DNA of 58,908 nt, the filler included, from Sphacelaria rigidula (Eukaryota): the NCBI GenBank assembly GCA_964200075.2. It is 6 parts of 6 records of this genome, joined end to end, with 100 filler letters (N's around TTAATTAATTAA, not from the genome) between each part and the next. Parts side by side here need not be neighbours in the genome. Positions count along the whole stretch, not along the records: positions 29,507 to 39,240 come from CAXNAA020007874.1; 5 more parts are not named here. One strand, 5' to 3'. The translations under genes were made by a program, and so were the position numbers. Below the pieces are notes generated by a model, which did no database searches, had not been told where the DNA came from, and saw only the letters and a program-made list of their open reading frames with translations. Positions 9,737-49,174 of this stretch are shown in pieces (within the stretch, counting starts at the first letter, position 1; each line of letters starts with the position of its first letter).

Positions 9737-9836
9737 NNNNNNNNNNNNNNNNNNNNNNNNNNNNNNNNNNNNNNNNNNNNTTAATTAATTAANNNNNNNN
9801 NNNNNNNNNNNNNNNNNNNNNNNNNNNNNNNNNNNN
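9737..9836. other. Artificial contig linker (N44-TTAATTAATTAA-N44)
   Basis: Exactly 100 nt with a core giving stops in all six frames; the identical linker recurs every 9834-9835 nt. Confidence 0.98.
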
Positions 9837-16644: not shown

Positions 16645-16888
16645 GGTGCCCCCCGAGGGTCCCGCTGAAGGCGCCGTGCCGGAGGCCCGTTTTTACACGG
16701 TTTGGCTTCACGAGAGCTAAAAAAATACGTTAATTTTGAGCCAATTTTCAAGGGCTGCATGTAGCATTCATAGCCAGTAACGGTAAATAATGGTTGAAAC
16801 CATTATCCAAAATGTTCATACAACCATTGCCATTACTACCATTATAATGATATTGACCAGTTATAACTGGTACCATTTCCGAGCTCTA
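16645..16888. repeat. Second copy of the repeat at 141-412
   Basis: Direct alignment by eye; shared GAGCTCTA terminus. Confidence 0.8.
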
Positions 16889-17544
16889 CCTACTGCTGTA
16901 TCATGTATGATAAGTGCAGTGACATTTATTTCTTGTTTTCGTACGTGGGTTAGGGTGTAGGTGTTCAGGTTGTGGCCTTCAAACTCAATGACTAATGAAA
17001 AGCATCATTTTTTTATTAAAAATAAGTCGTCAAAATTTCGAATGCCCAACTCGTCGTCTTGTCCTCATGCCAGAAGGCGCGCCGCGTGAAGGGATACTGC
17101 CACAATGCCACAACGCCACAACAATGACGGGAAAAAGGCGCATAAAGCGCACCTAATTTGCGCTAACAAAGCTTGAAGTGGGCTTGAAAAATAATATAAA
17201 AGCTTATAAAAAAATAAGATGAGCTTATTTTCGTGAAAAACGTGCTTACGGAATTAAGGCGGTTTCTTCCGGTTCGTTTTTTCCCCTCGTTTTTTGCAGC
17301 AACATATCAGGAAAAAAGACCGCTAGGAAAATACTATGAGAGATTTTGACCCTAGCTTACGGTTGCAGATATATTTTTGAGGGGGGTGGGGTACCAACAG
17401 AGTCGAGAGATACCAAAAGTACGGTCAACGGAATTCAAAGGGATGTGCATGCCAAGACTCAAAGACTTCGCCATGCCAAGCTTCCTGTGTTTGTGTAAGA
17501 AAAAGTGAAACATAGACCTCTCACGATTGCTGCTGGCCCAGCTC

Positions 17545-19571: not shown

Positions 19572-19671
19572 NNNNNNNNNNNNNNNNNNNNNNNNNNNNN
19601 NNNNNNNNNNNNNNNTTAATTAATTAANNNNNNNNNNNNNNNNNNNNNNNNNNNNNNNNNNNNNNNNNNNN
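19572..19671. other. Artificial contig linker
   Basis: Same N44-TTAATTAATTAA-N44 structure. Confidence 0.98.
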
Positions 19672-29406: not shown

Positions 29407-29506
29407 NNNNNNNNNNNNNNNNNNNNNNNNNNNNNNNNNNNNNNNNNNNNTTAATTAATTAANNNNNNNNNNNNNNNNNNNNNNNNNNNNNNNNNNNNNN
29501 NNNNNN
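29407..29506. other. Artificial contig linker
   Basis: Same structure. Confidence 0.98.
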
Positions 29507-29810
29507 CACCTTTGTTCACGTCTCGCATTTCCCCCTCCAGCACGTCCCATTCCTCCTTGTATAGTTGACATACTACCACTATATGACTTTTGCTCTCTAC
29601 TGCTTCGCCACAGAGGCAGTTCTGTTCATCTCCTTCCTCGCCCACACGACGACTGGTATATCTCCTTTTTCTTTCTGGCAGGTCCAGGTCCCCCACCCGG
29701 AATCGCAGTTTCATATTTTTTGCAGCGTCCATTGGGTCATGCAAATATGCTTTCATCCCTATACCCTCTCTCAACCACCCGTATATCTTGAGGTGATCTT
29801 CCTCGTCTAC
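29507..29810 (-). mobile_element. 5'-truncated LINE fragment (ORF2 C-terminus) abutting the Gypsy protease region
   Basis: EEDHLKIYGWLREGIGMKAYLHDPMDAAKNMKLRFRVGDLDLPERK...NCLCGEAVESKSHIVVVCQLY contains a CxC..H..C zinc knuckle. Homologous to ~40030-40320. Confidence 0.85.
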
Positions 29811-30771
29811 TTTCGTCTGATTCCGATCATATCTCTTACTTTTGAAGGGAGGGGAGTTATGCGTCGAAACAGCGATGGAGGTCGTTGGTTACATGGGGAA
29901 ACATAACAAACAAGTTTCAATGACAGGGAGCTGGATTCTTGAGGGCCGTGAACCCTAGTTACAGTGGATACCTCCGATGAAGATCCTAGGGTCAGCGGTG
30001 ATTCCGATTTATTTGTTTCCACCCGGAAGATAGAGTAAGGAAGGTATGGGTCAGGGTGGTCGATGGATTACCATACGGATTCATGTTGGAAGCAATTTCT
30101 CCAAGAGAAACAACAGCACGTTATTTTTTGAAGGGCAATCGGGATTTCGGCCTCCGCCGGAGGTACCGTGGGTAAGGTTCGTGTCTAACGGTTCACCAAA
30201 CTCGGAGCTGTTGACACCGACCACCTCACCAGCCAAGGAGATTCGGCAGGGTGGGAAATCTTCTGTGCTGTCAAGCCAAGCGCGCCCAGTGACGATCCGA
30301 TGGGGATGTTGTCCGATGAGAGCGATCTGGCAGCATAGGATGAGGTGTGGAAAAGTCTCGGAGTGGCGTGGGAGGACGATGCTATGCTTCAGTGGTTGCT
30401 ACATCTGACGGAGGACGTGAGGTTAGAAGGGATCGTTAGCGAGTTAGCCCCAGGCTACATACGAGGGTCTCAACCGCAGGAGCGACAACTCGTGTTGATC
30501 GAACCTCGGAAGGCGTTCGATTTAGATAAAGAGGCAGAAATAGGGGTAGCCAGAGGGGTGCAGTGGTGGGATCCACTTTTACCATTAGTACGTAAGGTGG
30601 TCAACACCGCCAAGAGTGCTCGCCTAGTAATATGGTAGTGGCAAAGGTCGTGGCCATGAATGTTCGAGATCGTGAACGGTTGCAGAGTCTGTTCTTTTCC
30701 GACTCGGGCACAACGCTTAAGCAGAAGCTGGAGGAGGGAGGGACTGCGTCGGCTCCTCCCCAACAGTTGTC

Positions 30772-30838
30772 CGTCTCGAAAGGGATGCGTGGTCAATGGT
30801 CAAATGACTAAGGCAAGCAACAAATGAGTACGCCCCCC
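30772..30838 (+). mobile_element. Extremely 5'-truncated LINE 3' end inserted in the Gypsy pol, with a 14-bp TSD
   Basis: ccccaacagttgtc at 30758-30771 and 30839-30852 flanks cgtctcgaaagggatgcgtggtcaatggtcaaatgactaaggcaagcaacaaatgagtacg plus a C-run. Confidence 0.92.
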
Positions 30839-32580
30839 CCCCAACAGTTGTCGGAGTCGTCGGAAGTGAGGGACACGGCTGAGCCCACAGGAGTGGATCT
30901 CACGGAGGCGAACATCGGTCAGTTGAGTCCAGCGCAGAAGGTCCAGCTGCTATCTTTGTTACGCAACTTCAACGAAGCACTTCTTTTTGCGGTGGATCCT
31001 GAGCGAGTGAAGGCCGCCCGTGGAGAACCGTTGTGTCTATAGCTTTAAGACCCCAGGTGTCGGCTATTTACTGCCAGCATTAGGCGGTACTCGCCAAAAA
31101 ACAAGACGGCTATTCAAGACGAGGTCTAGAAGCTCGTGGAGTCGGGGATCATCGAATCGCCGACGTCAGCATGGGCGGCTGCTTGCGTCATGGTGTGGGA
31201 GAAGGACGGTAGTTTTTGTTTGTGTCAGGATTGTCGTGGAGTGAACGAGCTTCTCGAGCCATACAGCGGCGGTTTGGGGGATATATAGACCATGTATAGT
31301 GGGATAGCAGGATCCAAGTACTTCAAGAGTGTTGATTTAGCGAGTGTTTTTTTTCAGTTGGAGGTGGCAAAAGAGGGTCGACACCTAGCAGCTTTTCGCG
31401 ATGCGAAGGGGCACTTATGGCAATATCAACATGGCGGATTCTGACTCAAGGCATTACCAGCAACGTACAACCAAACAGTATCCGAAGCGTTTTTACCGGC
31501 GAGGGGTGTCAAGAATTGGTTGGACGACATCTTGTGGCCTAGTGCGACATTCGCCAGTCACATGACGGGGTCGAGAGTCGTGCTGCATTGCTTGTTGATC
31601 GATTTCCAAAATCACAATGGTATACCAAACAACAAGACGTCGTGGAGATGACGATCGATGCTTCGGGGATACGACCTTCGCAGTCTAAGATCGAAGCCAT
31701 CGCTCAGTTGAGGGAACCACAGAGGGCGGAGGAGCTAAAATCGTTTCTGGGTATGACCGGATATCCTCGGCGATATATAAAGGGGTACAGTAATACAGCG
31801 GCGCCGCTCACGGATGCTTTGCGAGACAAGCGGTTCGCCACCAAGCGGGCGCGGAGGATGACCATTCCGTGGGGGATCCAGCAGCGACAAGCATTCGTTG
31901 GCTTGGAGGGTGCTGTGATGTCGTATCAATCTTGGTGATCCAGGTTAGACTGAGCGATTCGTGCCACACTCCGACGCCTTAGAGTACGGGGCAGGGGCTG
32001 CCCTGGCTCAGGAGGCGGACGAGAGGGAACTGATCATCGAGTACGCTAGTCATAGATAGTCTCGAGCAGACGAAGATAGGTCGGCAACAGAGAGAGAGGT
32101 AGTTGCTATTTTGTGGTCAGTAGATCGATGTAGATAGTATATATAGGGGCGAGGGTTTACGCTGTTGACGGATTATTGTGCGTTGACATGGCTGTTTCGC
32201 AGTCAAACCTTGTCGCCTAAGTTCCACCGGTGGGCGCTGAGGTTGATAGAGTATGACATGGCCCTCAAGTAGAGAGCTAGACACGGACACCAGCTGCGGA
32301 TGCCTTGTCCCGGCTGCAAGGAAGCCAAGACAGGGGAAGCGACATTGATGTGTCATTCCCTGACGATAACACGGAAATCGGACCAGTCGGAAAGGGAGGA
32401 CCGCAAGGACCTAAACTGGACGGAATGCTACTGAAGGAACTGGAGGCTGAGTATCCGGAAGAAACTGCGAACGTCACGGCATTGGCGTTGGCGGAGGTCA
32501 GCGCGTTGTACCCACCGGAACCGGGGGACGCGGTTACCCTTGACTCTGAGCATCCAATGCCAGGGCCGGTGAAGCAATGG

Positions 32581-33470
32581 CCCACAGCTCTGATTGTCCA
32601 TTGTGGGGGTGGAGGAAGTACTCTGACTGCCGAGGAGTCCTTGGAGGTGATAGCGGCCACTGATGCGAACGGGAAGGCGTTGGATTGTGTTAAAGTAAAC
32701 CAGATTGGGAAGGGAGTCAGGCTGGCACGTGCGAGTCCGAGGCGCCGTTCTTTCCACCATCTTGTGGAAAAAGTGTAACCAGAAGTGTTGATAGGGGATA
32801 CAAGTAGGGTTGCCTCCATTGAGCGGGGTGCGCAGGAGCCGGAAAAAGCCGGTGTTGTCAAAGAGTTGGTCGAGTCATTCCTCTCTTCAATCTCGGTGAT
32901 AACTCTGATCTTGAAGAGTACTGCTGTAATGGTGAGCTCTCCGGGTTGGAAGGAGCGTGTGCTCCGTTGTTGAGCGGAGCTGGTTGTTTCACCCAGCAGG
33001 CTTTAGTCTCCGCCGTATAGGTGGGCGCCCCATATCGGACGAGACTGGCCTATGTGGTCGATTCGAAAGCTGATTGTCAGAGGGAAGGGCAACTGCGAGC
33101 GTGGAAGCAGCGAGTGGAAGCGTACGCCGTTGCCTGCCCCACGTTAGGTCAGCTGTTGGGGCGGACCGGCACACATTTTCTGTAACCGACGGGATAAGGC
33201 AAGTCTATTCACATTTTTAAGGATCCGATACCCAGCTTATCTCGTTCCTGGCTGAAGAAAGGGGAACCAAGGCGCGACGAATTCAAATCCCGCAGGACAG
33301 ACGCAGGGAGGTGGGAGGAAGCAGTCGAGCTGGGAAGGGTTGATCTCGTCAGAGTTGCGATCACCCTCGACCGTTAGGAGACACCACCCACGGGGAATAA
33401 CGACGCTATGCCAGAGATTGTGGCTAGTTTCGTTCACCCGTGGATGACGAAGGCGATTGTATCAAGCTTG
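32581..33470 (+). pseudogene. C5 cytosine DNA methyltransferase-like domain within Gypsy pol (degenerate, catalytic residues absent)
   Basis: Motif-like segments in canonical order: I ALIVHCGGGGS; II VIAATD..KALDCVKVN; IV PEVLIGD; VI LILKST; VII-VIII LLSGAGCFTQQALVSAV*VGAPYRTRLAYVV; IX ELGRVDLVRVA; X IVASFVHPWMTKAIVSSL. One frameshift near 32965, then the same frame as the integrase ORF. Recognised by eye, not by HMM. Confidence 0.72.
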
Positions 33471-33521
33471 GAGGCGAGAGGTTTGTTGAGCATGACTTAG
33501 ATTCAGGGTGAGGATGAGGGT

Positions 33522-35090
33522 TTGAGGGCGCTCGCAGCGATATGGCCGTGTGATGGAGCAGAGTTACCAGAAGCTTGGGGAGCCGCCGTAATCCGATCGT
33601 CGGTGAAAGAGGTCAAACATAAGTTAGACCAGAACCCTGCTGGGGGGGAGGCTTCAACTGAGGAGCCACGGATGTCAGGTAAAGGTAACCCTCAGACCGT
33701 TCTCGCGCAGGCGCGAGCAATCTCGATGGATAAGCCGCGACTAGTCTTACTGCAAGAGTGGGACTCCCGGCTTGGGCTCATCAGGGATAAGTCAATGGAA
33801 GAGCAAAAGGATGAAGGAACTGATAAGGGGAAGAAGACGTACGTTCTAGATAAGGATGGTCTTTTATGGTATACCTCATCTAGGGCGCCAGCTAAGTTAG
33901 CTATTCCACGTAGTCTAGTGTCTGACTTGCTAGCGTTGGTGCACACTACGCAGGGGCACGCCGGAGTAATGAGAACGACTGAAGTGGTCAACGCACGTTA
34001 TGAGTGGTCCGGTCTTTTCGCCGATACTCGCAGAGACGTGCTGTCTTGTTGGTGTCACCGACGCAAGCGTACTAATTGTCACACCATAGCGATGCAATCC
34101 GCCCGATTCTTGCGGCCATGGGAGGTGACAGAGATGGACATATCGGACATGAAGCAAGTTTCTACCTCGGGTAATAGATACTTGTTGGTCGTTGTCGATC
34201 AAGCGACCAAATTTCTTTTTGCCTTCCCACTGGCCACCAAGGTCACTGAACCCGTAGCCAAGTGTCTGCTAAAGCTCTTCTTGACGTTCGAAATACTCTA
34301 TTTCCTTAGAAGTGACGCTGGGGGGAAGTTCACCTCGGACGTAGTAAACCATGTATGCCAGGGGATAAAGGTGAAACTGGATCATGGTGCAGCAGATCAC
34401 GCTCGCGGTCAGGGCGCGGTGGAAAGGTACGGAGGGTGGTTGCACGACGTTTTAGCCGAGTTATGTAAGGAGTGGCCGGAAACGCGGGATGAGTTTGTAG
34501 ATCCCGCTGTATGCATTCACCGTACTACTCACGATCCGTCACTGCCTAGCAACCCGACGCCGTTCAAGCTGCTTTTTGGGGTCGAGCCTCGCACCCAAAT
34601 CGACGCTGTGTCACCTGAAGCGGCATCCCTACCGTTGAATAACACGGTAGAACAACAACGACATAATCTGAAGGAGGCTCACGGGCTATTCACCCAACGT
34701 CATAGGCAAAGGGAAGAGGAGATATCAGCTAGAAATGCCGAGATGACTCGCCAGTCGGCAGGATCGCCAGCTCAGGTAGGAGATCTGATGCTAGTCAAAG
34801 AGTCCGACAGCTCCCTTCTGAACGAAGATGTACCGGCCAAACTAGTACACGATTTGTGGACTGGACCGTGGACGGTGCAGAAAGTGGTGATACCAGGTCT
34901 CAGCCTTAAGGTCAGAAGGCAAAGGCATGAAGCACGAAAACGAACGGTGTCTGCATCCAACGTGAAGAAATTTCATGTGCGTCCAGAACAGCTGCGGCAC
35001 TCACTCCCAGATGAGTACTCTCAGTTAGCTTGGGGGCTGATTTTGGGGTTGGCTGATGATATCACGCCCGCACCACTACTGTACACCTGA
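33522..35090 (+). CDS. Gypsy integrase region (522-codon open segment of the decayed pol)
   Basis: Zinc-binding LVHTTQGHAG...VLSCWCHRRK; DDE core EMDI / RSDAG / GAVER; GNRYLLVVVDQATKF; TPFKLLFG; GPY/F-like LWTGPWTV. Confidence 0.93.
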   Translation: MRALAAIWPCDGAELPEAWGAAVIRSSVKEVKHKLDQNPAGGEASTEEPRMSGKGNPQTVLAQARAISMDKPRLVLLQEWDSRLGLIRDKSMEEQKDEGTDKGKKTYVLDKDGLLWYTSSRAPAKLAIPRSLVSDLLALVHTTQGHAGVMRTTEVVNARYEWSGLFADTRRDVLSCWCHRRKRTNCHTIAMQSARFLRPWEVTEMDISDMKQVSTSGNRYLLVVVDQATKFLFAFPLATKVTEPVAKCLLKLFLTFEILYFLRSDAGGKFTSDVVNHVCQGIKVKLDHGAADHARGQGAVERYGGWLHDVLAELCKEWPETRDEFVDPAVCIHRTTHDPSLPSNPTPFKLLFGVEPRTQIDAVSPEAASLPLNNTVEQQRHNLKEAHGLFTQRHRQREEEISARNAEMTRQSAGSPAQVGDLMLVKESDSSLLNEDVPAKLVHDLWTGPWTVQKVVIPGLSLKVRRQRHEARKRTVSASNVKKFHVRPEQLRHSLPDEYSQLAWGLILGLADDITPAPLLYT

Positions 35091-35489
35091 ATGGATAGAA
35101 AAGTAGTGCTACGCTCAGGATCATCGTGGATGTGAGAATATCGGGGGTTATTTCACGACGGAGCCGAGTCACACTGGCTTTTAGAGGAGGAGGTTTTGAG
35201 CAGTTTCACTCGGTTGCAGTTGGACGGTTTTCATGCCTTGTGGCAATAATATCACCCGCAGACCAGGCCACGTCCATCTGTTACACCATCTCGAGCAGAA
35301 AGTGACTCGATTGCTCGGGATGAAGCGTTACGGCAGATTCCCAGAAGTACCAAGATCCGTAAACGGTATGCGGACTGCCAAGGTGAGCAACAGGAGTTCG
35401 ACGGGGTGGTTTTCGATTTCCGTCAACCGTATTACCGTATCAAGTATGAGGATGGGGACTGGGAGGAGATGACGCAGTTACAGGTATGA
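35073..35489 (+). pseudogene. Integrase C-terminal chromodomain-like plus Tudor-like modules (same frame, interrupted by stops)
   Basis: LYT*MDRKVV....WM*EYRGLFHDGAESHWLLEEEV is chromo-like. TKIRKRY......EFDGVVFDFRQPYYRIKYEDGDWEEM is Tudor-like (Y.I.YEDGD.EE). Terminal TGA at 35487-35489. Confidence 0.72.
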
Positions 35490-35550
35490 AAATGCACGGT
35501 GGATGCAAGAGGTGCCGGAACAGTTCCCGGGTCAAACTGAATGAAGAAAG

Positions 35551-35795
35551 GGGATCGTTCCTGTACGGTGTTTAGATTCCCTACGTGGTCTAACCCGGCA
35601 GAGTGATCAACAAGATCGAGAACTTCTTCGGACTGAATGGGATCGTTTTTGCACGGTTTTCATGTTCCCGACGTGGTCTAACCCGGCAGAGCGGTCAACA
35701 AGACCGAGAACTTCTCCGGGGTGGATGGGGTCGTTCCTGTACGGTGTTTGAATTCCCGACGTGGCCTAACCCGGCAGAACGCTTACCAAGATCGA
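35551..35795 (+). repeat. 88-bp tandem repeat (~2.8 copies) in the Gypsy 3' untranslated region
   Basis: Units start at 35551, 35639 and 35727 and share ggg(a/g)tcgtt..tg(t/c)acggt...acgtgg(t/c)ctaacccggcaga...caaga(t/c)cga. Confidence 0.88.
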
Positions 35796-35901
35796 TGGCT
35801 ACACAAAACAACGGCAATTACTCGGGAAAGAAAAACATGGTGACGCGGCGATCCATCGTCGAACCACGTTCAGTCCCAGCGTTTTTCAAGCCTGGGCCTG
35901 C

Positions 35902-36227
35902 GGGGGGGGGTATTGCGGATCGCGGCGTAGTGGTGGTAGCGCAGTACGATGATGGGCCCGTCGATCATGACGGCCAAGAGCCCGGAATGCTGACTGCGGG
36001 AACTGGCAAGTGCCGCAGTCAGGGGTGAGGATGTTTGGATCCGTTCGTGACGGTTACATAAACATTCCTCTTTACTTTCAGCTTGAATTTGATTTTGTGA
36101 ATCGATTCTCAGCCGGCACCCTTGTTTCCAGAGCTCTCAGGAGCCGAAGCGCCTGTGCACTGACTGAGTGATAAAAAACATCACTACAGAAGAGAAGTAT
36201 CATCGCCCTGAAGCTGTGATCAAGACA
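35902..36227 (+). repeat. Polypurine tract (G9) followed by a putative 3' LTR
   Basis: G9 at 35902-35910 directly precedes tattgcggatc. Tentative right end ...gatcaagaca at 36227. No second LTR in the contig to confirm it. Confidence 0.5.
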
Positions 36228-36629
36228 CGCTGACGTTCAGCGTGAACCGTTCTGCGCTGGACTTTTCCCTCATGCCGTGCGTCTGCTGGTTGGTTATCGA
36301 AATATAGGTGAGACAGCACGGATGCAAAATATAGATAGCACGTAGTAGATAAGGCAAAATACCGTCAACACAGTAGTAACAATGAATGGGTGCACAAAGA
36401 GTACGGTGTGGCTCAGGAGGGCACATTTCCCAGAATAGTAAGCATTGTAATATAGTATGCACGAGTTTGTATGCATATAGGCTAGCGAAACTTGGTTACT
36501 TGTAGGAATGAGGGGATGTGTTGTATCGCTAGTCGCGTGGTAAAGGCATACAGTGTTGAGAACAACCGTGGATAATCCATCTGTTTGCAACATGGTGCTT
36601 CAAACCGGGAATTACTGTGTCAAATCTTA

Positions 36630-39170
36630 GCACCCGTGTGGTACATAGATCACACCTTCATGCAATTTTGCCAAATACTCTGCCAAGGGATGCAGCAGCT
36701 GACGTGAGACTCCGATCTTCATATGTTTAACAAGATATATGAAGAAAAGGAAACGAAGCGTAATTTCGTTTTCATTCAAGGGGGCAGCATATGTCTTTGG
36801 GATACAATCTGATGAATCGTAACTAACCATTATTGCGCATGCTGGAAGCGACGCGCTCACTTTTTGCGCCCAAATAGTGGGGGTCAAATTGCGGAGATGG
36901 CTGCAGTGGTCACCCACATTTCAGATTGTTGTGGTGTGGGTCAACTCACCCATGTCTCCGGACCGCGTTTCAGAAGGGAACCTCGACAAAGTCACCATGC
37001 CGTGGAAGAATCCTCGATCGTTGCACTCGTTGTCGATCAAGCTGAACAAGTTTCCTAGCTGCAAGCTCATCAGCCTATCTCTCCTTGTCTTCGACTTCCC
37101 CTTGGACTGGAGCTGGTCGGGTTGCATGCAATATCCGAAAGGAATGCAGTGCTCGTCGTGGAGAGATTGCAATCCTTTTTCTCTTGGTGGTCACAGTCAC
37201 GACCGTAAGCGTGAATGAAACACCCCCCCGATAATCGTACAGCTGACACTTTCTACGATAGCCCCCCCCCCCAAACCAGCTAAAAGTGCCACGAAAAAAA
37301 TGGCCATAAAGCGCCTGATGTTCGGGTTCAGGCTGCATGAAGCGCCTTATATTGGCGACATCGGCTAGGACGAACCCAAGCGTGGGAATTCCCAGCTTCT
37401 CGTTGTGCTCGGCTTTTCCCATTTCGACTTACGTGAAGATTTTTCTTCCCAAAACCGTGCACTTTTTTGGGGGGGGCTATCATAGAAAGTATCAGCTACG
37501 TTACGCTCCCCTTGGAGTGCGTTCCGCGGGGGAATACAACCGGTTGACGGTGCGCCGCCCTGAGTATCAAACTTGACGCGCTTGGTCGGTTTAGGAAGTC
37601 CTTCCTGCGGACGCTTTTGCGTATCCCTGGCGGGGGGGGGGGGGGAACTCCGAACGGTGTGCCACTGCATGGCGTTGATACCCCCTGATTACTAAAGGCT
37701 GCGACGGCGCTAACCCCATCCTCGATGGCGTGCTCCTCCGCGTTTTCACGCAGGAGTCGCTCCTTAGTGGCCACCAACCCCGCGTATAGTGGTGCGCTGT
37801 GTGACCTACTGGAGTGCGTCAACGCGGCAGCTGAGTGGTTCATAACTTCGTCCGTAGTGTTGGCCTACTCGAAGTGGCGCTGAAAAGCCGACACGAAGTC
37901 GCTACAGATGCGATAAGTGATTTGCCCTCTCCTCTTCATCATGAAGCTGGCCAGATCGCCATGGTTTACCGGTAACATGCGGACGTCATCTTCCGAAGCT
38001 TTGTTGGGAATCTGGACCAGATTGTTCGTCACTAACCGTGCTGTCGTGCTGGGCATCACCAATCGGTGAAAGCTTCCGTACAAACGCAAGACTAGAGTCT
38101 CCGAGGCCCCCCTCCAGAAACATTCCTCTTCAGCAAGGTGCGGAAAGGATGGAGAAATCGTGGCTGCGATGGTCAACAGTACGAGGCGGTGAGTGGCTGC
38201 TACGTAGCTCTCATTCTTCAGTAGGTTTACGTTTTTAAGAGCGGTCCCGCATCACCTGTATCCATCCTGGCCTCCTCGGCTACCAACTTTCTGAGCCGTT
38301 CCAGGGCGGTGACGTCTCCAAATGGTACTTGCATTATGTTGCCCGATACGCCGGGCACCTCAAAAGCAGTTTCCCTCCAATTAGTCATTTCGGTATAGGT
38401 GGCGGAAGTGGGTAACACAACCCGCATGAGTATATCCCTACGTCTGTCGGTGTATTGGTCCGCCTGCGGTTTCAGCAGCTTGTCAGCCAAGGGAGCGTCT
38501 GTGGGTACCCGCCAACTTCCCCCTTCATACACCGCTAAAGTGGTACGAAATGATTTAAGAACAAGACCGCCGGATTCCGGTAAGTCAAATCTCCAATCCA
38601 GTCTACGAGCCGTCCCTTATACACTATAACATCCGCATCCTTAGCTCCCAAGAGCTTGGATAGGTTAGAAGCCTGGCGTGATACCGCTTCCTGGTGTTTC
38701 AGTATAACAGACCAATCACGGTCGAACGGCTGAGCAGAAGGTGCGGGAATGCTAGGGTATGTGGCTCCATACGGTGTCAACCCATCCAACCCGGATTGAG
38801 CAGCTGGAGTTGTACCGGACGGATTCAACGATCCATAGAATGAGCTAGAGTAGAGACTGACCGAGTCGGGTGAAACCATATACCTAGAGCGGCGGTGGGG
38901 GGGCAACGGCGGCGGAGGCGGAAGCTGGGAACTAACGAAATTCCTGGCAGCATGCGCCTGCGGGGCCCACGGAGACCCAGAGACTGGCATCACCTGCTGA
39001 GGAGGCGGAGGAACAGACGGCAGGACGTTTTGTTGTCCGGGGGCAAGGTGCCCCTGCTGCTGATGCTGATGAAGAGTAGAAACGATGCACAGCAGCTGTG
39101 GGTACACGCTAGAGTTTGGCACCACAGTAAGAGTAGCCACAGCTTACCAGTAGCGGTGTTACTGGACAAC
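36630..39170 (-). pseudogene. Long decayed intronless coding region of unknown family (P/Q-rich N-terminal part)
   Basis: Chain of near-abutting minus-strand ORFs (39140-38535, 38532-38227, 38176-37865, 37843-37496, 37172-36921, 36917-36627). It is interrupted by a MITE and bordered by a LINE tail. Confidence 0.5.
37245..37493. mobile_element. MITE of the 'GACAC' family, 4-bp TSD (AGCT)
   Basis: agct|gacactttctacgatagccccc ... gggggctatcatagaaagtatc|agct; the interior is inverted relative to the 13338 copy. Confidence 0.9.
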
Positions 39171-39179
39171 GGGGCAGGA

Positions 39180-39240
39180 GGGGGGGGTGTACTCATTCCT
39201 TGCTTGCCTTAGTCGTTTGACCATTGACCACGCATCCCTT
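39180..39240 (-). mobile_element. LINE 3' end with C-run tail; the contig breaks inside it
   Basis: Reverse complement reads aagggatgcgtggtcaatggtcaaacgactaaggcaagcaaggaatgagtaca plus C8. Confidence 0.88.
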
Positions 39241-39340
39241 NNNNNNNNNNNNNNNNNNNNNNNNNNNNNNNNNNNNNNNNNNNNTTAATTAATTAANNNN
39301 NNNNNNNNNNNNNNNNNNNNNNNNNNNNNNNNNNNNNNNN
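39241..39340. other. Artificial contig linker
   Basis: Same structure. Confidence 0.98.
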
Positions 39341-39735: not shown

Positions 39736-40581
39736 AGAGACATGGGACAGTGAGGAAATTGATATGGCAATAAAGCTCAAAGAACATGCAGAGAAAGAGA
39801 TCGCCAGCCATACTTGATAGGGCTATATGGCAGAAAATGACGACATGTCAAGCTAGAATAACGTGTGGTAGCGCAGCCGAAAAAATATGGAAGAATGTAG
39901 AGAAACCCAAGACGAGATACTGTTGGGAGTGCGAATCGGGGGAATGTCAGCCTCCGACAAATGTCCGGGTTGTTCGACGACATTTTTCTGACCATAGGCA
40001 ACTCATCTCAACGCCAAGACGGGAAGCACACGAGGAAGAGCACCTGAAGATATAAGGCTGGTTCAGAGAGGGGATAGGGACCGAAACGTAGCTGCATGGC
40101 TCAACGGACTCCGCGAAAATAATTGAAAGGGCAATTTCGGGGCGGGACCTGGATCTGCCAGGAAGAAGAGAAGATATATACCGGTCGCCAAGTGAAGGAA
40201 GTAGATAGACAGAACTGCCCCTGTGGCAAAGCAATAGAGAGTAGAACTTATATAGTGGCAGAATGTGAACTGTACAAGGAGGAACGAGACATGCTAGAGG
40301 GGGAAACATGGGAACTAAACAAAGGTGGCATGGAATCGCGTGACGCATTAGACAGTAACGAGAAAACGATGGCTGTACTAGGAGATAGATGGTGGCCACA
40401 GACGGCGAAACAGGACGAGGATAAGATGTGGAAAACGTTTCTGTGAAATGTATGGAAGACACGTAGTGAGCGCCGAAGTGTTGGGGGTGTCTCTATCAGG
40501 AGTAGACGGTACTCTACCCCGGAAGGGATGCGTGGTCAATGGTCAAACGACTAAGGCGAGCAACGAATGAGTACGCCCCCC
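39736..40581 (+). mobile_element. 5'-truncated, decayed LINE (ORF2 C-terminus, short 3' end, C-run tail)
   Basis: EEEHLKI..., NCPCGKAIESRTYIVAECELYKEER...LGDRWWPQ; ends gaagggatgcgtggtcaatggtcaaacgactaaggcgagcaacgaatgagtacgcccccc. Confidence 0.9.
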
Positions 40582-43108
40582 GCCGCGCCCCCCCGTCTTC
40601 TCCTTTTCGGGCTCCCTTTAGCGAGAAAATCCGTTCGTGCATTTACCCTCAGGGTAGGTGCATTCCCAGCTTGTCGTCACCACGGCTTGACGATTTCTGA
40701 GCCACTAGCAGATCCGTTCATGTGCGATAACTGACCAACAAATGAAAAAATAGTAACTCCAGTGAGACATACCACAGTTCAGGGGGTCGGCGTACTAAAG
40801 CGGGAAGATCCTTGTTTTATACGAGTAGTACCCGTATTGCTTCAAAGACAAACATAATAGCCTCTCCCCTCACTCCGGCGATTGTTCGCAAGACAGCACC
40901 AGCCCAATCTCAACAGAGAACCACACACACACGCGCGCACGCACACCTTCTAGAATAATCTGTGCTCCCGCCAATGCAATTCAGTCACCATTCTATCCAT
41001 TTGCTTAGTCGGCACGAGGAATGCTCTTTTGTTGCCTCCGCTTATTCCGTTTTCATTTTACAAATACTCGTCTCTTGATCTAACTACAGCAGCATTTCCC
41101 GCACAAACAACCTTCGCCACGGGATCAACACCTATGGTACGGTAACGTGCATGGTGATGATCTGCCATGACACCTACTGATCAATATCGTTTGTTTTTTG
41201 GAGTATCAGCGCATAGACGCCAGTGCAGTGCGGGGGCTGTGGCGACCACCGCGACCACGGCTCTAGACGCCATCATGGAACATGACTCCAAATTTGTACG
41301 ACGTATCTTCTGCGGTATCTTGAAGCACGTATCCCTGATCCACCACCTGTTCATGGGCCGTGGAGGTTAACTGAGCATTGCCGTAAAGAATGTTCAGAGC
41401 TCAGTACTAGGATCTCTATGATTATGTGCATAAGTAACTTACTTCAAAATTATGTCAACTCCACGATGCAACATGTTCTGCAGAGGGTGTTAAACAACAT
41501 GACGAGACAAGGGGAAACCGTGCTGCCCTCTCGCCAGCCTTTGGCGTGTTTATTTCGATCCTCCGCCCCCAAATGTGACAAGAACCCTGTGGATATTTAA
41601 CAAGTGTACGGGATTTCGTCAAAACACACAAAAGTTCTCCAATCTTTGACCGGCGCGTGAACCATAGTCGTCATCCGATGCCTGAAAAGATCACTTGTTC
41701 GCGTAGAATTTTAGTCATATTTCAGCCAAATCGAGCACCAACATATCGTGTGTTACGACAAGGTTGTAGCACCATCAGTTCTTCGTAGCCCATCCCTACA
41801 CAGAAATTGCTGAGAGCACAACACCCTACGGGACGCAAGGGCGACAAATATCACTCGGAGATATGGTAAGCCTCGCTATGACCACCCCCTGTGGGAATCG
41901 GCCAGATCCAGGGTTTTTCTACGGGCTTAGCTCTGTGCAGCGGATGCCTGTGCGGACAGAAGACCACGAGAAGGTCTGTTCAAGTTCATGAGCCGAAACG
42001 CGCGTACTGTACGCGCGACGTGGCATCATCCTTCGCCTTTGGCCACGACGTACAGTAGTCAATCCGAGTTCATTCTTCACCTAGTGAATGTGTGTGACCC
42101 TATTGTCATATGCGAGAGCTCCTTGTGAAAATATCTCGGGATCTCCGCTGTCAACGGGGCCAACCTGTTGATCGCCCGAAGGTGCCCATCTTTTGAATCG
42201 ACATCATTTTCATTCGAAAAATGCACCAGAATCAGGTGCCCGTTGGAGATGCCCGGATTCTCACTACTGACTGTACTGTGCTCAGGGCGTGTTTGCGCAG
42301 TAACCTGGCTTCGACCGCGGGGGTGGGCGATCTGGGTTTTACTCACTATTACTCAAGTGAGAGTGGTCCTGATTCAACAGATAATCCACCCTGGCCGTCA
42401 AATGGTTAAAATCAAGTCACGAGACATGAATGAGCTCGCGTGCACACAATGCTTTTGGTCAAAAGGTTGGTCAACGCAGATGATTTCTGTTTTTTTTGTA
42501 CGATTACAGTACTGTACTTATACTCGAGTGTCGTTCCGCGAATGTTGCCGTTTATACAAGATAACTTTTGCTGTATGTGTATCTCGCCACCGCGACAGGA
42601 TTCGCACGGGCGGGGCCAGTTGATATAATAATGTGTTCTGCTCGTACTCGTGCTAGATTTTTGGGGAGTTGGGCGCTGGAAATTTGACACGATATTCCAC
42701 CATGAACACGCGTAACATCTACTCGTACAGGATGCTAAGAAAAACGACAAAACGGGAAATTAGAGCGGTTTGAATTTCAGAAAAAGGTGGAAAATGTCAC
42801 ACCTCCGTGAAAAGAAAAGAAACGGCGGTGTCCCCCGTCGAGAACTCTGTGCTTGCGCGCATATGATCCTGGTAATCTTTCGGCTACAAACTCCTGAAAT
42901 TCGGCTCAGCGTGGAACTCTGATGTGACACCGCTCCGCCCCTGTATTCTTAGGGCCTGTCTTAGCACCTTTTTTTTTCGATCGAAATAGTGCGGTTGCTT
43001 TTTCTTTTGCCCATCTCATAGGTCCACCGTGTTTATGTTCCTTGAAGGCTTCAACTCAAAACTAAAATTAGCGGCGCGCGGAGAAGAATGCAACGAGGTA
43101 ATGTTTTC

Positions 43109-49001: not shown

Positions 49002-49074
49002 GGGGGGGGGGCGTACTCATTTGTTGCTTGCCTTAGTCGTTCGACCATTGACCACGCATCCCTTTCGAGACGGA
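49002..49074 (-). mobile_element. LINE 3' end with C10 tail; the contig breaks inside it
   Basis: Reverse complement tccgtctcgaaagggatgcgtggtcaatggtcgaacgactaaggcaagcaacaaatgagtacg plus C10. Confidence 0.9.
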
Positions 49075-49174
49075 NNNNNNNNNNNNNNNNNNNNNNNNNN
49101 NNNNNNNNNNNNNNNNNNTTAATTAATTAANNNNNNNNNNNNNNNNNNNNNNNNNNNNNNNNNNNNNNNNNNNN
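49075..49174. other. Artificial contig linker
   Basis: Same structure. Confidence 0.98.

Follow-up and report, generated by a model that had tools for sequence, protein, structure and literature searches.

Why would a retrotransposon carry a DNA methyltransferase (DNMT)-like domain in which the catalytic motifs of such enzymes cannot be read? The question is raised by a decayed Ty3/gypsy-type element of Sphacelaria rigidula (assembly GCA_964200075.2), found in a stretch of 58,908 nucleotides (filler included) that we analysed at its full length and call the window; the locus sits in the piece at 29507–39240. The domain covers ~940 bases (32560–33500, + strand) between the RNase H and the integrase of the polyprotein, and it was delimited by alignment to relatives and by the fold of one of them, P0037. 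The original prediction, made from the sequence alone, had called it a pseudo-enzyme on account of four motif positions and had suggested that the family kept a dead methyltransferase fold. Our best explanation, which we hold at a probability of about 0.62, is that a conserved methyltransferase fold has given up C5-methyl transfer and is retained in a non-catalytic capacity. The domain itself is probably inactive in C5 methylation.

We searched for relatives of the domain in several ways. phmmer with the translation of the window (stops written as X) against 1.84 billion representatives returned 35 relatives at E ≤ 0.001, the best at 1.4e-37 and all of them short. Three long polyproteins, P0037 (1978 residues), P0038 (1241 residues), and P0039 (1431 residues), and 24 fragments came from word-indexed searches, and cluster look-ups contributed near-identical full-length proteins of 1982 residues (P0060 and P0064) and 1992 residues (P0069 and P0077). 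The cluster of P0038 counts 126 members, and P0069 and P0077 belong to a 126-member cluster; a protein search among long proteins with the domain region of P0037 gave no match besides P0037. Conversely, tblastn with the 1978 residues of P0037 matched its residues 115–1974 in seven segments, at 34–62% identity, across 29968–35516 of the window. Because of the phmmer relatives and of this alignment along a 1978-residue polyprotein, the DNMT-like resemblance is not due to chance. In P0037, P0060, P0064, P0069, and P0077, a single uninterrupted open reading frame (ORF) encodes the protease, the domain, the integrase, and the Tudor end. One relative, P0020, is 32% identical and carries the EukProt name Cladosiphon okamuranus (a brown alga). 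The element family is very large, since 25,120–65,180 contig pieces per DNA run fall on the element at ≥80% likeness. A further run, X8, conjectured to be RNA, had 2,491 such pieces, from which we claim no expression.

The domain is predicted to have the fold of C5 DNA cytosine methyltransferases, with a Rossmann core and the returning motif IX–X helix. We modelled the domain of P0037 with AlphaFold2, using an alignment of 26 relatives; the model had a mean predicted local distance difference test score (pLDDT) of 69 and a predicted template modelling score (pTM) of 0.69, with core blocks above 90. All Foldseek matches listed for this model belong to the C5 methyltransferase family, with probability 1.00 and E values of 1.2e-8 to 5e-6: M.HaeIII, a prophage enzyme, DNMT2, DNMT5, DNMT1, MET1, M.HhaI, and DIM2. 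VIA-align, which is independent of Foldseek, compared the model with 48,161 representative chains and placed members of the C5 family at all of ranks 1–18 (Z 18.1–11.1), with 206–251 residues aligned and model residues 4–319 spanned. Generic S-adenosylmethionine (SAM) methyltransferases reached Z ≤ 10.8 over 130–180 residues and matched the Rossmann core only. The structural match takes in the motif IX–X end, where it extends to residues 309–319 of the model. DNMT3 chains scored Z 11–12 versus 13.7–18.1 for DNMT1, DIM2, DNMT2, DNMT5, and the bacterial enzymes, so a DNMT3 origin is not indicated. A feature search of the ESM Atlas agreed on the family: 29 of its 30 matches were DNA_methylase clusters, with scores of 0.95–0.96.

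Sequence profiles were far less sensitive. We scanned the stop-free ORF pieces of the window with Pfam, considering matches to E 1, and none matched DNA_methylase; the top methyltransferase was Methyltransf_15 at E 0.19, which is noise. None of 26 family members matched DNA_methylase, and they had no Pfam match of any kind. A family profile run against the PDB sequences found no methyltransferase and hit adenosine kinase alone (E 1.3). In hhalign the family matched a set of E. coli Dcm and six phage C5 methyltransferases weakly, over 70 columns (E 1.1e-4, probability 56), in a pairing that sets the LEC of the family against ENV and its PSGKRK against PQHRER. Dcm alone gave no hhalign match.

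Which of the catalytic residues does the family have? We placed the rows of 50 relatives on one profile and counted the residues at each motif position; coverage varies by position, so the tallies below refer to 34, 25, 18, or 41 relatives. At motif IV, Pro-Cys is absent from all 34 relatives covered, as is the preceding Pro by itself. The position of the catalytic Cys holds Ser in 18 of them, Cys in 6 (always as Ala-Cys), and another residue in 10 (Thr, two Arg, Tyr, Glu, two Phe, two Val, and an Ala; P0039 has Ala here). All five uninterrupted polyproteins of 1978–1992 residues carry Ser: P0037, P0060, and P0064 read GDASRK at motif IV and LEC at motif VI, while P0069 and P0077 read GNTSRR and IES and so have no Cys in either motif. 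The original prediction had taken the missing Pro-Cys to be older than the decay of one copy, and it is upheld: with 0/34 relatives, the five uninterrupted polyproteins among them, the absence is a property of the family and not of this copy. Since Ser occupies this position in lineages whose polyproteins are long and uninterrupted, the element can spread without covalent C5 catalysis of the canonical kind.

The other motifs are lost in part. At motif VI the Glu position is occupied by Glu in 21 of 25 relatives, by Gln in 3, and by His in 1; the Asn of ENV is found in none of the 25, and the residue after the Glu is Cys in 19 and Ser in 4. At motif VIII the Gln of QxRxR is missing from all 18 relatives covered, and its two Arg positions hold Lys or Arg in 15/18 and 16/18; only P0008, P0030, and P0039 have Arg at both. 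The Gly-Asn of motif X was not found at the aligned place in P0037, P0039, P0048, P0050, P0056, or the copy in the window, nor, read by eye, at the corresponding place in the P0069 domain. Judged from these alignments, the losses of Pro-Cys, Asn-Val, Gln, and Gly-Asn are old and family-wide. The hallmarks of the SAM pocket have fared differently. A motif I loop of the GGGG type is shared by the window copy and most relatives, and an acidic residue (Asp or Glu) follows strand 2 in 34 of 41 relatives, which bears out the earlier remark that the SAM-binding glycine loop persists.

A fold without its nucleophile could persist by selection or by inertia, and close intact copies speak to this. Between P0037 and P0060 we counted differences at 3 of 162 sites in the domain core versus 22 of 211 in linker and spacer, about five times fewer (Fisher p = 7e-4); the core of reverse transcriptase (RT), RNase H, and integrase differs at 21 of 682 sites, no different from the domain core (p = 0.6). 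P0037 and P0064 gave a similar picture, with 4/162 in the domain core versus 21/211 in linker and spacer (p = 0.006). Among seven copies of the P0038 cluster, we counted variable sites at 5/302 positions of the domain, 14/220 of the spacer, 7/254 of RT, and 7/229 of integrase. The proposal of a dead-fold family is thus favored by a fold that is kept and a core that looks constrained.

Several observations weigh against that proposal, and the first of them leads to the alternative that survives best. Since Cys stands at motif IV in 6/34 relatives and after the motif VI Glu in 19/25, some lineages could still be enzymes, and to that extent the earlier claim of a dead family does not carry through. 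The domain would then be an enzyme with unusual chemistry: the Ala-Cys subfamilies might methylate cytosine, the Cys after the motif VI Glu might serve as the nucleophile, or another atom or substrate might be modified without a covalent intermediate. In RNA 5-methylcytosine (m5C) methyltransferases the Cys after the motif VI Glu position does act as the nucleophile. In a FastTree tree of 26 sequences the Cys-bearing members did not form one clade, and Cys at motif IV occurred in at least two separate clades; by our own count, Cys or Ser as the ancestral motif IV residue of the clade that contains them costs an equal number of changes (6 each). The retained SAM-pocket hallmarks, Glu, and basic pair fit this alternative, and the slow change of the core suits an enzyme as well as a binding module. 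Against it, both Cys positions are occupied by Ser in P0069 and P0077, the motif IV residue is Ala in P0039, and this residue varies across the family. A Pro before the Cys position is missing from every member, as is a motif X Gly-Asn. Nor is there CpG depletion: the observed/expected ratio is 0.93–1.08 in each of the six pieces that make up the window, and the decayed element has 0.95. We consider such an enzyme unlikely, although it is the best placed of the alternatives.

A second group of contrary observations concerns constraint. In a comparison of three deep lineages, no other folded part of the polyprotein is as poorly conserved as the domain, with 34–40% identity in its core, 42–44% in its middle, and 39–59% at its end, versus 53–62% for RT and 63–68% for RNase H. 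Thus, the constraint on the domain points to being real but weaker than that on the RT and RNase H enzymes. The measure itself is a proxy, as it counts amino-acid differences within the ORFs of a few predicted proteins and is not a ratio of nonsynonymous to synonymous rates (dN/dS). Low deep identity, together with a former nucleophile position that varies freely, would also be expected of a functionless relic: a captured DNMT, once active, that drifts and survives within an ORF that must stay open. The relic does not explain why, between close intact copies, the core collects about a fifth of the differences seen in the linkers and stays on par with RT and integrase. Nor does it explain the gaps, since over the deep lineages the domain is nearly gapless whereas the spacer behind it takes 71–84 gap columns. 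The block ATDxDWRALEC is nearly fixed, and the entire fold is still predicted, with its core blocks at high confidence. For these reasons we regard drift of a relic as improbable, more so than an unusual enzyme.

The remaining points of this kind lie in the material and the model. Most relatives are short predicted ORFs and probably dead copies, so the motif tallies mix live and decayed states. The equivalence at motif IV rests on position, as the first loop residue after strand 4 of the model; when hhalign was forced to align end to end, it gave a probability of 11 and a placement of motif IV that is not trustworthy. The middle of the model, which resembles a target recognition domain, is poor, with pLDDT below 50 over most of residues 194–292.

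We then read the motifs in the window copy against this family background. A motif I-like glycine loop, HCGGGGS, lies at 32599–32619 (+ strand, in the reading frame of 32281), after strand 1 of the model. The most conserved block of the family, which carries the acidic residue after strand 2, follows at 32656–32688 (+); it reads ATDANGKALDC here and ATDxDWRALEC in relatives. Motif IV is represented by IGDTSR at 32791–32808 (+, frame of 32281), where a Ser codon (AGT, 32803–32805) takes the place of the catalytic Cys, and motif VI by ILKST at 32908–32922 (+, same frame), where a Lys codon (AAG, 32914–32916) takes the place of the Glu. Motif VIII falls in GAPYRTRL at 33024–33047 (+, frame of 32823), with Thr (ACG, 33039–33041) and Leu (CTG, 33045–33047) at the two basic positions. 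The domain ends in a motif IX- and X-like stretch at 33324–33449 (+), VELGRVDLVRV ... EIVASFVHPWMT, without Gly-Asn. Translation therefore confirmed the letters first reported, namely IGDTSR, KST within ILKST, and T and L at motif VIII.

These three motifs are split over two reading frames, and a frameshift at ~32950–32965 joins them. The tblastn segments against P0037 switch frame at 32964, and other copies of the element differ there by one base in length. The domain also holds six in-frame stops, at 32776 (TAA, 32776–32778), 33018, 33183, 33195, 33375, and 33498. By its sequence the window copy is a dead member of the family; the Lys, Thr, and Leu, like the six stops and the frameshift, belong to its private decay. 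This changes what was said of the original motifs: the loss of the Glu and of both motif VIII basic residues had been counted as old, and three of the four listed positions turn out to be private to this copy. What stands of the ENV claim is the missing Asn, not the Lys, since most relatives have Glu; what stands of the motif VIII claim is the missing Gln, not the Thr and Leu, since most relatives are basic at both places.

The original prediction had also named what would speak for an active enzyme that had simply decayed here, namely intact relatives with PC, ENV, and RxR. We found no relatives with PC or with the Asn and Val of ENV, and those with the Glu and the basic pair go half of the way. 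A family of canonical active DNMTs, of which the window copy is merely a decayed member, would account for the six stops, the frameshift, and the three private residues. It is refuted for the relatives found, uninterrupted polyproteins included, because none has Pro-Cys, Asn, or Gln, and none of the 26 members scanned matches Pfam DNA_methylase; we give it almost no credence. Equally little goes to a Dam-like adenine methyltransferase as in DAM-LTR (long terminal repeat) elements. SPPY at 33007–33018 does resemble the (D/N/S)PPY motif of amino-methyltransferases, and passages of bioRxiv 10.64898/2026.05.21.726589 describe gypsy elements that have a DAM domain between RT and integrase. Yet SPPY is rejected as lying outside the frame of the family (GAPYRTRL is read in the frame to which P0037, P0007, and P0039 align), the motif is seen in no relative, and C5 methyltransferases lead the structure matches over the whole domain, with no Dam-type chain among the matches listed.

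How, then, might a conserved but non-catalytic methyltransferase fold serve the element? The domain belongs to a Ty3/gypsy lineage with a Tudor end, very abundant in an alga, and lies between RNase H and integrase in its polyprotein. Across the family it keeps the Rossmann core, the glycine loop, the acidic SAM residue, the motif VI Glu, and the motif VIII basic pair, in the retained order I-IV-VI-VIII-IX-X; missing are the nucleophile motif Pro-Cys, Asn-Val in ENV, Gln in QxRxR, and Gly-Asn in motif X. Such a domain would be unable to attack cytosine C6 covalently in the canonical way, at least in the Ser and Ala lineages. Its job would instead be to bind SAM and/or nucleic acid, either complementary DNA (cDNA) or target DNA, beside the integrase, and it may act with the Tudor reader in the choice of integration sites. 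A bolder reading, which we put forward as a speculation more likely wrong than right by far, sees here either a new module for targeting or cDNA handling, made from a dead DNMT with a Tudor reader, or a cryptic nucleic-acid-modifying enzyme that profiles miss. Part of the same speculation, and as doubtful, is that this lineage long kept a cysteine-less fold with a SAM pocket beside its integrase, in tens of thousands of copies, while spreading in brown algae and their relatives, hosts reported to be without DNMT1, DNMT3, DNMT5, and 5-methylcytosine (5mC).

The state of the host bears on this point. Passages of PMC13076208 report that brown algae lack DNMT1, DNMT3, and DNMT5 and keep DNMT2 alone, and the abstract of PMC6916402 gives ~1.4% methylated cytosines for Saccharina. 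A host with little 5mC, as first supposed, is plausible; it is compatible with the CpG ratios of the window and with the brown-alga relative. As a separate observation, transitions predominate among the differences between element copies.

DNMT folds without catalysis have a precedent in DNMT3L, a host regulator that has lost its C-terminal motifs, partners active DNMT3 enzymes, and has a non-catalytic role. The present domain would resemble the DNMT3L type in being a DNMT fold without catalytic residues that is kept for a non-catalytic role. Unlike DNMT3L, it keeps the full motif order and sits in a transposon polyprotein, maybe in hosts without DNMT1, DNMT3, and DNMT5.

DNMTs borne by transposons are already known, and the cysteine-less variant between RNase H and integrase would be the new aspect. 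The closest cases, KnitGypsy-Dnmt3 of Klebsormidium and SymbioDIRS-Dnmt3 and SymbioLINE-DNMT of Symbiodinium, are described, in passages of de Mendoza et al. 2018 (PMC5890265), as keeping their key residues, having a ratio of nonsynonymous to synonymous substitutions (Ka/Ks) below 0.2, and methylating CG. Like these elements, ours has a C5-fold domain within a retrotransposon Pol polyprotein, and the Klebsormidium element is also a Gypsy (same passages). Unlike all three, the present family is without Pro-Cys, ENV, Gly-Asn, and any Pfam DNA_methylase match. Next come the elements described in passages of bioRxiv 10.64898/2026.05.21.726589: DAM-LTRs, with Dam-like adenine methyltransferases that have a conserved Asn-Pro-Pro pocket, and EpiLTRs, with an additional DNMT4-related DNMT at the 3′ end of pol. 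These too are algal or protist LTR retrotransposons that combine a methyltransferase with a chromatin reader, some of them, as described there, with the methyltransferase between RT and integrase. The present element differs from them in that its only such domain has the C5 fold, lacks the catalytic motif, and precedes the integrase, and in that its reader is a Tudor-like domain rather than a chromodomain.

A further likeness is Gypsy-10_Ec32 of Ectocarpus, which passages of PMC12477816 present as a Gypsy element with a C-terminal Tudor, reported as the first such, 11,528 bases long, and with homologues in a yellow-green alga. The two elements share a C-terminal Tudor after the integrase, and the 11,528-base length given there leaves room for an extra domain. 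Likened by this description, Gypsy-10_Ec32 is probably the same kind of element. In the main text of PMC12477816, as far as its passages go, the word methyltransferase occurs twice, once concerning a Sola-1 transposon, and neither a methyltransferase nor a DNMT is mentioned for Gypsy-10_Ec32; four supplements contain 0 occurrences. Within the literature text that we covered, passages of PMC9998398 and PMC12477816 included, we met no account of a retrotransposon whose DNMT fold has been stripped of its catalytic motifs.

The domain stands in the following element order: protease, RT, RNase H, methyltransferase-fold domain, spacer, integrase, and C-terminal Tudor-like domain. In the window this decayed Ty3/gypsy-type polyprotein region covers 29968–35516 (+ strand), from protease to Tudor-like end, in three frames with stops and frameshifts. 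The RT region (30893–31905, +) aligns by tblastn to P0037 residues 398–740 at 47–50% identity, with a weak RVT_1 match, and the RNase H end (31967–32310, +), whose last letters are ADALSRL, aligns to residues 762–871 at 62% identity. The integrase ORF (33501–35087, +) is 529 residues long and stop-free, with a zinc-binding domain and a core that match Pfam Integrase_H2C2 (2.4e-7) and rve (2.1e-7). The RT reads WLDD, and the earlier remarks that the RT and integrase residues of this copy are intact hold. The C-terminal Tudor-like domain (35250–35486, +) was recognized by Pfam PTM_DIR17_Tudor (E 1.9e-6, 28.0 bits versus a cut-off of 27.2), and the same end was found in P0037 and P0069. It sits at the end of the element, where a chromodomain might stand.

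Other repeats surround or interrupt this copy. A hyper-abundant 73-base unit lies inside the element but outside the domain, at 30770–30842 (no strand assigned); one tblastn segment stops before it, at 30614, and the next begins after it, at 30893. Further copies of it occur in the window at 49002–49074, 40520–40584, and 39180–39240. Its summed word depth is in the millions, and it shows head-to-tail joints (the unit "goes back 73") together with C-rich loose ends, and elsewhere C-rich runs flank it; it looks like a satellite or a very small mobile unit inserted into the element copy. Directly behind the polyprotein end (35516), an 88-base unit stands in three tandem copies, 74–83% alike, at 35548–35811. 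A second copy of the element family begins at 39069–39185 with its protease region (49–61% identity to P0037, P0038, and P0039) and is truncated where the piece ends. Two different pieces of the window share a direct repeat of 94 bases (320–413 and 16796–16889, 84% alike), which points to a further dispersed repeat. The window is not continuous: it is made of six pieces of ~9.73 kb with joints at 9737–9836, 19572–19671, 29407–29506, 39241–39340, and 49075–49174, each of which consists of 44 N, TTAATTAATTAA, and 44 N.

What would a conserved, non-catalytic fold of this kind mean? Profile-based surveys of DNA methyltransferases, those of transposon-borne ones included, would miss the domain wholly, as the 0/26 Pfam result indicates. 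Should the host be a brown alga or related to one, genomes that have been called DNMT-free except for DNMT2 (passages of PMC13076208) would hold very many DNMT folds in their retrotransposons. A conserved fold without a nucleophile, set between RNase H and integrase and accompanied by a domain like those of histone readers, is a candidate for an accessory function in retrotransposition. Finally, the natural series of Cys, Ser, and other residues at motif IV offers a chance to ask what role a DNMT fold may have after catalysis is gone.

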